Source: Escherichia coli (GTDB lineage Bacteria > Pseudomonadota > Gammaproteobacteria > Enterobacterales > Enterobacteriaceae). Taken from it: a stretch of DNA of 38,099 nt. The stretch is taken from the NCBI RefSeq assembly GCF_003334335.1, contig NZ_QOWQ01000042.1, one strand, 5' to 3'. The notes under the pieces were generated by a model. The model was not told the DNA's origin and ran no database searches. It worked only from the letters and a program-made list of their open reading frames with translations. Below, one piece after another: positions 7,717 to 9,937 of the stretch. Every line of letters begins with the position of its first letter. Positions within the stretch are counted from its first letter, which is position 1. A program made the position numbers and the translations under genes.

Positions 7717-7740
7717 CATAAAAAAACCGCCAGCGCGGTT
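7717..7740 (-). terminator. intrinsic terminator on the early-right strand
   Basis: Minus strand: aaccgcgctggcggtt followed by TTTTTTT, between the cargo island and the ORF6N gene. Confidence 0.45.
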
Positions 7741-7820
7741 ATGCACCGTTTCGATATCCGGGGTGCTAATCCCGACGCCAGATTTTGCTGGCGTGCGAAG
7801 AATATAATCCCGGATATGTG

Positions 7821-7849
7821 TTGTCGTCAACATACCTTGAATGTATATA
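7821..7849 (+). promoter_or_regulatory. candidate sigma70 promoter of the toxin-antitoxin operon
   Basis: TTGTCG, 17 bp, TATATA, ending 12 nt before the toxin ATG (very short leader). Motif-based only. Confidence 0.3.
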
Positions 7850-7860
7850 ACAAATTTGTT

Positions 7861-8202
7861 ATGTTTACTCTCATAAACTACATTATCGAATACTACAGTG
7901 ACGAGGTTGAAGCTGAGATCCTTTCTCTTCCTGAGACCTTACAAGCCCGGTACATTCGGTACACGGAGAAAATGCGTATTTACGGAGCTAATCTTGGTTC
8001 CCCGCATACAGAGGCATTTGGCGACGGTTTGTTTGAAATCCGCCTTAAGGGCTCGGAAGGCATAGGGCGTGTTTTTTACTGCACGCTAAAAGGAAAGCGA
8101 ATCATTATGTTGCATAGCTTTGTAAAGAAAACGCAAAAAACTCCACCTGCCGAGCTTAGAAAAGCTGAAACCAGAATGAAGGAGGTTAAGCATGACTGGT
8201 AA
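7861..8202 (+). CDS. gp49-like RelE/HigB-family toxin (DUF891-type)
   Basis: 113 aa with GDGLFEIRLKGSEGIGRVFYCTLKGKRIIMLHSFVKKTQKTPPAELRKAE, the gp49/HigB-like motif. Overlaps the downstream HTH gene by 11 nt. Confidence 0.7.
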   Translation: MFTLINYIIEYYSDEVEAEILSLPETLQARYIRYTEKMRIYGANLGSPHTEAFGDGLFEIRLKGSEGIGRVFYCTLKGKRIIMLHSFVKKTQKTPPAELRKAETRMKEVKHDW

Positions 8203-8500
8203 ACGTACCCCACCTACCATGACACACGATGAAATGGTAGAAAAAATGTTGTCTAACCCCGCAGTAAAAGCAGAATACGACGCCATCGCCGATGAATTCG
8301 CACTACTTGATGAAATGCTGGCAGCACGAAAAGAAGCTGGCTTAACCCAGGCTGAAGTTGCTGAACGTATGGGAACAAAAGCGACTGCGATAACCAGAAT
8401 GGAAAGCAATCTTGCATCAGGTACAAGCGGCCCATCATTTGCCACACTGAAAAAATTCGCCCGTGCTACAGGGAAAAAACTCCAGATCCGCTTCGTTTAA
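8192..8500 (+). CDS. XRE-family HTH antitoxin (HigA/gp48-like)
   Basis: 102 aa; EAGLTQAEVAERMGTKATAITRMES is an XRE-type HTH. Toxin-first gene order with overlap. Confidence 0.7.
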   Translation: MTGKRTPPTMTHDEMVEKMLSNPAVKAEYDAIADEFALLDEMLAARKEAGLTQAEVAERMGTKATAITRMESNLASGTSGPSFATLKKFARATGKKLQIRFV

Positions 8501-8512
8501 CTCTCCACTACC

Positions 8513-8537
8513 GCGCCGTCATTCTGGCGGCGCTTTA
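8513..8537 (+). terminator. weak terminator-like hairpin after the antitoxin
   Basis: gcgccg-tcattctgg-cggcgc followed by TTTA; the T-run is poor. Confidence 0.25.
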
Positions 8538-8554
8538 CCCCAGAGAAATATCAA

Positions 8555-8800
8555 TCACCGGATTACCACATCCCACTCCGGCTCCTGCCATCTCAAATCC
8601 GGTGAATCATTTCTCTCAGGAATAACCATTACGTCCTTTTCCCTTCGCTCCCTTTCTATCGCCATCACAGCCAATGCTGCAACCATGATGTATTTTTGTT
8701 CGTCGGTTCCTGTTTCATAACGACGCATGAGGGTAAACTCGGGGCGATCAGTAACCTCAATGATTTCGTTAATTTCTTTAATTTCGCGAGGAATATCCAT
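8555..8800 (-). CDS. hypothetical charged protein (81 aa); start codon overlaps the divergent DUF4145 gene start
   Basis: Met at 8800..8798 with AAGGAG 9 nt upstream on the minus strand (MDIPREIKEINEIIEV...). No family recognised. Real versus spurious not resolvable by eye. Confidence 0.35.
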   Translation of the reverse strand: MDIPREIKEINEIIEVTDRPEFTLMRRYETGTDEQKYIMVAALAVMAIERERREKDVMVIPERNDSPDLRWQEPEWDVVIR

Positions 8801-9473
8801 GGGTTTAGTCTCCTTTGATATCACATGCCCGCACTGTTTAAAAGAGCGAGCTGTTATTGAGGCATTTGCCGAAAAACAAATTGAAAAAACACCTTTTTTT
8901 AACGTCGCTTTTGTATGCAGAAGTTGTCATCGAGGAGGTGTTGCTATTGTTGAAATCCCATCAGACCACTATCACGGTCCCATGGCGGAAAGCCAGAAAA
9001 AAGACCTCGATATTCTGATTTCAGGAAATAGCCAGTACCGTTTCCGCAAGATCTATCCTGTGGTCAAAAAAATTACCGCACCAGAATATACGCCCCCGGT
9101 TGCAGACCGTACTTTTGTTGAGGCAAAAGAGGATTTACAGAGGAGGCGGTACGACACAGTGGTTATTCTTTGTCGCAGAGTCCTCGATATCTCCACGAAA
9201 AAACTGCTCGGCGATGAAGCAGGAAAAGAATCGCTGTCGCAACGTATTCAGATGATTTACAAAAAAGGCCTGATCACTGAACAGATGAAGGAATGGGCTC
9301 ATATTGTACGAATTGATGCCAATAAAGCAGTTCATACAGATGAAGTTTTCACACCAATTGAGGCAAGCCAGATCCTGAGTTTTACCGAAATGTTTTTAGT
9401 CTACGCCTTCACTCTGCCTGCAATGGTGGAAGCCAGACGTGAACAAAAAAGATCAGATTCAGCCTCTATATGA
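8799..9473 (+). CDS. zinc-ribbon plus DUF4145 (HEPN-like) protein, candidate abortive-infection/defence effector
   Basis: N-terminal CPHC...CRSC zinc ribbon. C-terminal RRVLDISTKKLLG...WAHIVRIDANKAVHTDEVF...ILSFTEMFLVYAF fits the DUF4145 pattern (R-x2-[GA]N-x-AxH) as recalled. GAGGAA RBS. About 38% GC and opposite to the surrounding operon. Confidence 0.6.
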   Translation: MGLVSFDITCPHCLKERAVIEAFAEKQIEKTPFFNVAFVCRSCHRGGVAIVEIPSDHYHGPMAESQKKDLDILISGNSQYRFRKIYPVVKKITAPEYTPPVADRTFVEAKEDLQRRRYDTVVILCRRVLDISTKKLLGDEAGKESLSQRIQMIYKKGLITEQMKEWAHIVRIDANKAVHTDEVFTPIEASQILSFTEMFLVYAFTLPAMVEARREQKRSDSASI

Positions 9474-9505
9474 ATCACTTTTCTGAACACGTAAGCCCCC
9501 GTCAT

Positions 9506-9937
9506 TCACGACGGGGAGAACATCAATCCCTCTGCACTCCCTCGCCAGAATGCCAGCACACGCTGCATCGTTTCGCTGTTACGGCACTCGCGACAAATTG
9601 TGTTGTAGCGTCTGTCGTAGCGCCGTATTTCCCCATCTGGTAATGCCCGGATAAGGTCTGGATCAACGACAACCGGTTTCTTCGACTTTGCCCTTGAGAG
9701 TTTTTTGCAGGCATTTTGCCAGTCCTTACGAGCCTGTTCAGACGGGAATACTCCGTAACCGGAATTGTAAACATCACCACTGGCGGCCAGCTCCATGCAT
9801 AAACGACCGACAGACGCATGACTGACACCAATTTCATCCGATAACTGCCGAATCGTGCCTCGTCCGTTAAGGCGTACGAATTCCACGATCAGCCCCTTAA
9901 TTTTTTCCCGCTCTTCTGGTGTAAATGCTCTTGTCAT
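9506..9937 (-). CDS. Ren-like protein
   Basis: C-terminal ICRECRNSETMQRVLAFWRG resembles the lambda Ren C-terminus (FKECRQSAAMKRVLAVYG, recalled). Start set at the ATG with GGAGG 5 nt upstream. Confidence 0.5.
   Translation of the reverse strand: MTRAFTPEEREKIKGLIVEFVRLNGRGTIRQLSDEIGVSHASVGRLCMELAASGDVYNSGYGVFPSEQARKDWQNACKKLSRAKSKKPVVVDPDLIRALPDGEIRRYDRRYNTICRECRNSETMQRVLAFWRGSAEGLMFSPS

Follow-up and report, generated by a model that had tools for sequence, protein, structure and literature searches.

A mobile, start-overlapping cassette of a RAZR-like DUF4145 gene and a small, lytic-operon-oriented gene in a lambdoid prophage slot of Escherichia coli

Introduction

PD-T7-4, since renamed RAZR (ring-activated zinc-finger RNase), is described as a one-gene system, in which a Cys4 zinc-finger domain is joined to a DUF4145/HEPN RNase (PMC13017515, 2026 Nature). 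The protein, whose source is E. coli UMB1727 (PDB: 9Y9C, 9Y6U; PMC13017515, PMC9519451), gathers around phage portal or Gp77 rings and, once activated, cleaves tRNA, rRNA and mRNA, resulting in abortive infection (PMC13017515). Residues R146 and H154 are essential, their mutation abolishing defence, and three residues of the inter-dimer HEPN interface (D179, D180 and R184) are needed for the formation of higher-order oligomers; for the zinc-finger domain, the authors' comparator was 1QYP, a zinc ribbon of the RPB9/TFIIS-type (PMC13017515). Here, we analyse a gene of related architecture found in a 38,099-nucleotide stretch of E. coli DNA (contig NZ_QOWQ01000042.1 of assembly GCF_003334335.1; hereafter ‘the window’), where it occupies a slot of a lambdoid prophage together with a toxin–antitoxin pair and a small gene whose start codon overlaps its own.

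A further HEPN defence protein carried by a prophage, HepS of Gifsy-1 (PDB: 9OIK), senses the J tail tip of phage lambda; it lacks a zinc ribbon, belongs to another HEPN family, and its structural match to the window protein is far weaker than that of minimal HEPN domains. An earlier reading of the window, made from its letters alone (‘the original prediction’), had taken positions 7717–9516 as an AT-rich island of three counter-oriented genes, and had not recognised their combination as a described system.

Results

A DUF4145 protein of RAZR-like architecture

The cassette that forms our main subject is made up of two genes, which meet head-to-head:

8799–9473, plus strand: RAZR-like protein, 224 amino acids; Cys4 zinc ribbon (C10, C13, C40, C43), insert, linker and DUF4145/HEPN domain with R171-x7-H179 (Pfam DUF4145, 8e-9)
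8555–8800, minus strand: small partner gene, 81 amino acids; phrog_8371 (7e-56) over its full length; a coding sequence in the Prokaryotic Genome Annotation Pipeline (PGAP) annotation

Relatives of the larger protein, drawn from a database of 5.8 billion proteins, number 83; they are 212–224 amino acids long and come nearly all from Enterobacterales. An exhaustive profile search puts the size of the subfamily at 3381 clusters at 50% identity, the best 150 matches being mostly full-length. In an alignment of 27 relatives, M1, the four cysteines (C10, C13, C40 and C43) and the set R171, D173, N175 and H179 are invariant. The AlphaFold2 model is confident (predicted local distance difference test score, pLDDT, of 88) and comprises an N-terminal beta zinc ribbon (strands at residues 4–6, 20–27, 33–40 and 46–52), a short insert of one helix and one strand, and a C-terminal domain made up of helices; searched as a profile, the N-terminus has weak matches among zinc ribbons of the RPB9/TFIIS-type, 1QYP included.

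Following the chain from N- to C-terminus, we see that the window protein resembles RAZR in being a single polypeptide of ~220 amino acids with an N-terminal Cys4 zinc ribbon bearing CPHC-type knuckles, a conserved proline-rich linker (‘..P....aP..tP’) and a C-terminal DUF4145/HEPN domain containing the R-x7-H motif RI(D/V)xNxAVH. With the sequence of RAZR-Ec rebuilt from two database fragments that fit the numbering of 9Y9C, BLASTP aligns the two proteins at 24% identity over 141 residues (E 3e-5), through the linker and HEPN domain only, and the PADLOC model for PD-T7-4 matches the window protein weakly, with an E-value of 0.002. Three methods (hmmsearch, hhalign and BLASTP) agree in placing R171 and H179 against the essential R146 and H154; in the hhalign alignment, RIDxNxAVH falls against the RIVGNQAVH of RAZR. 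We have filed the protein as RAZR-like in its apparent architecture and catalytic motif, and as a member of a distinct, uncharacterised subfamily. The zinc-ribbon/DUF4145 architecture was already known as that of the defence protein PD-T7-4/RAZR (PMC13017515), a point against reading the combination as an undescribed system.

Several observations weigh against too close an equation of the two proteins. Their similarity is remote: hhalign of the two families gives an E-value of 4.8e-5 at a probability of 68%, the profile match to 9y9c has an E-value of 0.09, a phmmer search of the PDB with the single window protein returned no match, RAZR thus not being found, and the RAZR structure is absent from the results of both fold searches. 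The window protein also has an extra insert of ~25 residues (helix plus strand) after the zinc ribbon; and the inter-dimer residues D179, D180 and R184 of RAZR, which fall at the edge of the reliable alignment, pair with V201, Y202 and L206. Because these residues are not conserved, the same ring assembly as that of RAZR cannot be assumed. The window zinc ribbon and the zinc-finger domain of RAZR gave no alignment by sequence. Genomic setting likewise distinguishes the two: the window gene resides inside lambdoid prophages, directed against the lytic operon and with a conserved head-to-head small partner, whereas the RAZR-type E. coli homologue that we examined stands alone behind an integrase, without a small partner.

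Database entries of the RAZR-Ec subfamily are for the most part 146–169 amino acids long and begin either within the second zinc knuckle or beyond it; these are either gene calls that truncate the zinc-finger domain or homologues without one. DS-38 of DefensePredictor (‘HEPN plus zinc finger’, validated) was considered as an identity for the window gene and ruled out: it corresponds to WP_001313577.1, a gene of 1101 nucleotides encoding ~366 amino acids.

A conserved and mobile head-to-head cassette

The minus-strand gene at 8555–8800 splits the supposed three-gene block; absent from the original inventory, it is the real conserved partner of the DUF4145 gene. Its ATG (at 8800) and the plus-strand ATG of the DUF4145 gene (at 8799) share the palindrome CATG. 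The encoded protein is predicted to fold as a three-helix core (residues 1–55, helices with pLDDT 85–93) followed by a variable, disordered tail, and is recognisable by the motif DRPEFTLMQRYE...DQK..FV.ALIGKLIEQDR. Profile searches of Pfam, PADLOC, NCBIfam and the PDB gave no match to it; the best-scoring protein, RFX1 (E 0.83), is not counted as evidence.

We surveyed the junction in 80 viral-contig loci retrieved via the DUF4145 protein. The CATG is present in 58 of these, and a homologous small open reading frame (ORF) starts on it in all but two (56/58; 56/80 loci overall); at the 25 loci with another junction the small ORF is not found (0/25). In the reverse direction, 50 of the 53 loci retrieved via the small ORF have DUF4145 head-to-head with it. 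That the small ORF is genuinely coding, with selection at the protein level, is seen in its codons: across 31 distinct sequences the entropy at codon positions 1, 2 and 3 is 0.86, 0.76 and 1.31, respectively, and its invariant R, P, E, L, I and R residues carry freely variable wobble bases. DNA around the junction has diverged freely; in many loci, a Shine-Dalgarno-like motif for each gene is nonetheless kept inside the first codons of the other.

The pair is found at three different positions. Lambdoid phages have it after the replication genes and before ninB; in Photorhabdus it is flanked by genes for a Q-like antiterminator and a holin, ahead of the lysis genes; and in Klebsiella, by the lysis genes on one side and terminase-like genes on the other. 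At all three the 2-nucleotide overlap of start codons is the same, as are the orientations, the small gene being co-directional with the phage operon and the nuclease gene opposed to it. The pair is therefore mobile as a unit, and prophages across the Enterobacterales have conserved it. In pairwise comparisons, the divergence of the small protein follows that of the distal HEPN half of its partner (rho 0.81) but not that of the adjacent, faster-evolving zinc-ribbon half (rho 0.20), and its correlation with ninB is only 0.51; these values are descriptive, the sequences being related. In two distant members of the subfamily (loci L153 and L155), a head-to-head partner was not found, which confines the pairing to the Enterobacterales clade.

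E. coli prophages commonly hold a variant arrangement (L100–L102 and L148–L152), in which DUF4145 is replaced by a gene of 166 amino acids that is co-directional with the operon and has no Pfam hit on record; here, the small ORF is retained with a new GTG start (MNNKINIPLEIKE...), and the toxin–antitoxin sub-slot holds a RelE toxin with two HTH genes. In two Klebsiella prophages (L144 and L147), a gene with an Acb2_Tad1_hairpin domain (family of anti-CBASS/anti-Thoeris sponges; at ~780–1070) lies ~1.3 kb from the cassette, thereby placing anti-defence and defence genes in one accessory region.

The toxin–antitoxin pair as a separate module

Upstream of the cassette, and likewise on the plus strand, the window carries:

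7861–8202, plus strand: Gp49/HigB-family (RelE/ParE-fold) toxin, 113 amino acids; Pfam Gp49 PF05973 (Gp49/DUF891), 6e-27, model positions 2–90 of 90
8192–8500, plus strand: helix-turn-helix (HTH; XRE/HTH_3) antitoxin, 102 amino acids; Pfam HTH_3, 1e-10; phrog_1373, 3e-36
8513–8533, plus strand: 9-bp G+C-rich hairpin past the antitoxin stop codon; -19.1 kcal/mol, z = -4.6, with 0/200 shuffles folding as well

The profile matches listed here and above, with full coverage of the Gp49 model, bear out the family assignments first proposed for the three plus-strand proteins. Toxin and antitoxin genes overlap by 11 nucleotides, toxin first, and the antitoxin is annotated as HigA in PV340546. The toxin start is most likely at 7861, rather than at the first ATG (7741): from 7861 the protein covers all of phrog_2523 (5e-42), the PGAP call of 76 amino acids from 7973 would truncate the Gp49 domain, and in Shigella phage 75/02 Stx a 68%-identical toxin allele is open across all 113 codons. 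The start at 7861 is without a clear Shine-Dalgarno sequence. A perfect 12-bp palindrome, AACAAATTTGTT, occupies 7849–7860 and so abuts the toxin ATG; it is a candidate operator for the HTH antitoxin, some nine 12-bp palindromes being expected by chance in 38 kb.

In toxin-first order, gene overlap, complete domains and prophage location the pair agrees with HigBA-type systems (a Gp49 RelE/ParE toxin with an HTH-XRE antitoxin), from which it shows no notable difference. In modules of the Gp49/HigB family, the antitoxin has two functions, neutralising its toxin and repressing the operon. From its sequence, we identify the pair as a HigBA-like type II toxin–antitoxin module, with toxicity and neutralisation predicted; the hairpin at 8513–8533 is likely its terminator, with a weak U-tract.

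Other prophages combine the same cassette with different neighbours. In strain JNEC-KY204, an identical DUF4145 protein (WP_032144013.1) and small ORF adjoin a different RelE/ParE–HigA pair; in strain 154, a closely related cassette (98% identical DNA over 8555–9473) adjoins a set of ParD, hypothetical and HigA genes; and in most lambdoid loci from outside E. coli there is no toxin–antitoxin pair, ninB following directly after the small ORF. The proposal of a single three-gene system is at odds with these exchanges. Among 5426 complete E. coli genomes, 36 have the small-ORF/DUF4145 cassette and 12 have this toxin–antitoxin allele with it, in support of the view that this is a variable slot of lambdoid prophages. 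Our preferred reading, to which we would assign a probability of roughly 0.6, is that the slot holds two independent accessory modules, a toxin–antitoxin pair and a RAZR-like cassette, opposed to the lambdoid operon.

Promoter-like elements within the cassette

Since the start codons overlap, the promoter of each gene must lie within or beyond the other. On the nuclease side, a promoter-like element (TTGATC-16-TAnCGT) recurs inside the small ORF and ends ~75 nucleotides before the nuclease ATG. The TTG of the element reads, on the opposite strand, as codon Q36 of the small ORF, which is CAA in 30/30 sequences, against 36% CAG amongst other glutamine codons. An equivalent argument for the invariant F23 TTT, considered as an antisense -10 element, was rejected, as TTT accounts for 91% of all phenylalanine codons in these genes. 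A promoter for the small ORF was sought inside the nuclease gene, and nothing positionally consistent was found there.

The prophage setting and the left flank of the slot

The early-right operon of the window lies on the minus strand and is typical of a lambdoid, Stx-phage-like prophage. Its order runs from O-like, DnaC-like, DUF1627 and DUF977/Ren-like genes to the cargo slot and then, beyond it, the ORF6N antirepressor gene, ninB, ninE, rusA and ninH. The elements that border the slot are:

9506–9943, minus strand: DUF977/Ren-like flank gene, closing the replication gene block; phrog_142, 3e-39; DUF977 in PGAP
9497–9516: 7-bp G+C-rich hairpin where the DUF4145 and DUF977 genes converge, in the space between their stop codons; plus-strand z -2.5, minus-strand z -1.7
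7801–7830, minus strand: promoter-like site, TTGACG-18-TATATT (10/12 matches), placed such that it could start an IsrK/C4/antirepressor transcript
7755–7807, minus strand: a1/b1 target element of C4 antisense RNA; Rfam RF03163, 46.9 bits against a gathering score of 46.7, full length
7720–7794, minus strand: IsrK-like small RNA (sRNA); Rfam RF01394, 75.8 bits, model positions 1–77 of 77
7609–7693, minus strand: C4-type antisense RNA; Rfam RF01695, 76.5 bits (gathering score 45), full-length
6881–7555, minus strand: ORF6N/P22_AR_C antirepressor flank gene, downstream of the C4/IsrK region; phrog_377, 1e-84; annotated by PGAP

As had been proposed, three plus-strand ORFs stand counter-oriented between the ORF6N antirepressor gene and the DUF977/ren-like gene, both of which are on the minus strand. 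The supposed G+C content of 38–40% was too low: 7717–9516 has 45.1%, individual genes 43.3–46.6% and the window 49.2%, the block falling at the 11th percentile of the window's 1.8-kb stretches, i.e. a mild AT shift only. Both hairpins put forward as boundaries of the island exist. The one at the ren stop (9497–9516) has no U-run and hence is not a canonical terminator. The other, a minus-strand hairpin with U-run at 7718–7740 (a terminator scan hit with a fold energy of -17.3 kcal/mol), is the 3' end of the IsrK-like sRNA and, with C4 and the a1/b1 target alongside, belongs to an antirepressor control region rather than to an island border.

The left flank in fact resembles the immI region of P1 (c4-icd-ant) and isrK-anrP of Gifsy-1, with which it shares full-length Rfam matches to C4, the a1/b1 target and IsrK, an ORF6N antirepressor gene directly downstream, and a suitably placed promoter-like site, ending 7 nucleotides upstream of the first IsrK model position. 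On these matches we assign 7609–7807 to an antirepressor control region of P1-immI/Gifsy-1 isrK type; the likeness concerns the left flank of the slot, a neighbour of the cargo and outside it.

Escherichia phage PhiR5_2 (PV340546), for which a literature search found no publication, matches positions 7500–9700 of the window at 100% identity, and prophages of eight complete E. coli genomes are 99.9% identical over the same interval. In one E. coli genome, NZ_CP145707.1, the match to the region reaches only query position 1821 of 2201 and has an IS3-family transposase beneath it, indicating insertional disruption within the slot. Elsewhere in the window, downstream of the nin region, two copies of the STnc100 sRNA (RF02076; 130 and 139 bits) lie ~300 nucleotides apart on the minus strand (3290–3499 and 3775–3968).

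Discussion

The contents of the slot are largely of known kinds: a type II toxin–antitoxin pair, a RAZR-like HEPN gene and a C4/IsrK region, of which the sRNA region and the toxin–antitoxin pair are ordinary. What has not been described is the conserved, mobile, start-overlapping cassette in which a gene for a RAZR-like nuclease is joined to a small one oriented with the lytic operon.

By analogy, we can suggest how the two modules might work. In the first, the antitoxin would neutralise the toxin and repress the operon, as its family implies. In the second, the nuclease would be made in the lysogen from its own promoter; its zinc ribbon may, as in RAZR, detect a superinfecting phage by one of its large ring-shaped proteins, for example the portal, and this would activate the HEPN RNase, ending in abortive infection. 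The small gene, probably without a promoter of its own, would come on only with lytic transcription that passes through the nuclease gene in antisense, nuclease and partner thereby being expressed alternately. The partner may further target the nuclease itself, or the nuclease promoter that apparently lies within the partner's coding sequence. Taken a step further, the small gene could be a built-in off-switch, expressed in the lytic cycle only and silencing or neutralising the nuclease, such that the prophage's own portal or rings would not trigger it at induction. We offer this as a tentative proposal, and one that we would sooner expect to be revised than upheld. Three observations count against the two-state reading of nuclease and partner as such. 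Modelling of a linker-fusion (small ORF, glycine–serine linker, nuclease; 24 paired sequences) with AlphaFold2 gave no confident complex, the predicted template modelling score being 0.50, when the nuclease by itself has 0.75; the small ORF is retained without DUF4145 in a variant common in E. coli, making a function of its own possible; and the window's copy of the embedded promoter-like element is degenerate (TTGTTC-16-TAACGA), so that expression of the nuclease here may rely in part on read-through from the toxin–antitoxin operon.

Some of the same evidence speaks for a plainer account, in which the small ORF is an ordinary gene of the nin region or late operon with an unrelated function, at whose start codon the nuclease gene inserted once, the junction then being frozen. 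The small ORF does survive without DUF4145 in many E. coli contigs (255 collection blocks), with the co-directional 166-amino-acid gene in place of the nuclease gene, the lambdoid copies share an operon with ninB and precede it by a few bases, and the fusion model, as said, shows no confident complex. Set against this, phages of different types carry the pair at three positions with an unchanging CATG overlap, from which it follows that the genes move together; DUF4145 accompanies the small ORF in 50 of the 53 loci reached through the latter; and the small ORF tracks the distal HEPN half above its operon neighbour ninB (rho 0.81 versus 0.51). We consider this account unlikely, if still a serious competitor.

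A second alternative concerns the larger protein, which might serve the phage itself, for instance as a regulator that binds DNA or RNA or as an enzyme of RNA processing, rather than act as a defence nuclease. PHROGs labels its family, phrog_1305, ‘DNA binding protein’, an annotation that also tells against our assignment; the family is widespread in prophages, as the 3381 clusters attest, and the match to the PADLOC PD-T7-4 model is weak. The invariance of the HEPN catalytic R-x7-H, together with that of D and N, points the other way, as does the orientation of the gene, opposed to the lytic operon in every context seen, in the manner of typical lysogen-expressed morons. It is moreover dispensable, being replaced in sister prophages, and the only characterised protein of this architecture is an abortive-infection RNase (PMC13017515). 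A phage-serving role strikes us as improbable.

Least probable of all, to the point where we set it aside, is that toxin, antitoxin and DUF4145 constitute one integrated defence system, the pair for example regulating or driving the HEPN effector: the three genes are co-directional, E. coli prophages always have some toxin–antitoxin pair upstream of the cassette, such pairs are also neighbours of DUF4145 in Photorhabdus (ParE/HTH_3) and, as a HicAB-like pair, in a distant member from metagenomic data, and the weak U-tract of the hairpin behind the antitoxin gene would permit read-through into a DUF4145 gene whose own promoter-like element is weak in the window, but the toxin–antitoxin family changes from locus to locus (Gp49/HTH, RelE/HigA, ParD/HigA, ParE/HTH_3, HicAB) next to a DUF4145 that stays the same or nearly so, the pair is lacking from most lambdoid loci outside E. 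coli, where the small ORF is followed at once by ninB, the units are kept apart by a minus-strand gene and a strong hairpin, and only 12 of the 36 cassette-bearing genomes have the present allele.

Two points reach beyond this slot. The first is for annotation: a large zinc-ribbon/DUF4145 clade is matched only marginally by the PD-T7-4 model of PADLOC (E 0.002), and automated defence annotation may miss it. The second is for prophage biology. A RAZR-type sensor of portal-like rings, when carried by a prophage, creates a self-targeting problem, since induction requires the prophage's own portal; the problem is not treated in the RAZR paper (PMC13017515). The cassette is a testable candidate for how prophages reconcile the defence that they carry with their own replication and, should the off-switch proposal prove true, would amount to a mobile unit of two genes in which a defence gene travels with the factor that gives the prophage self-immunity during its lytic cycle.

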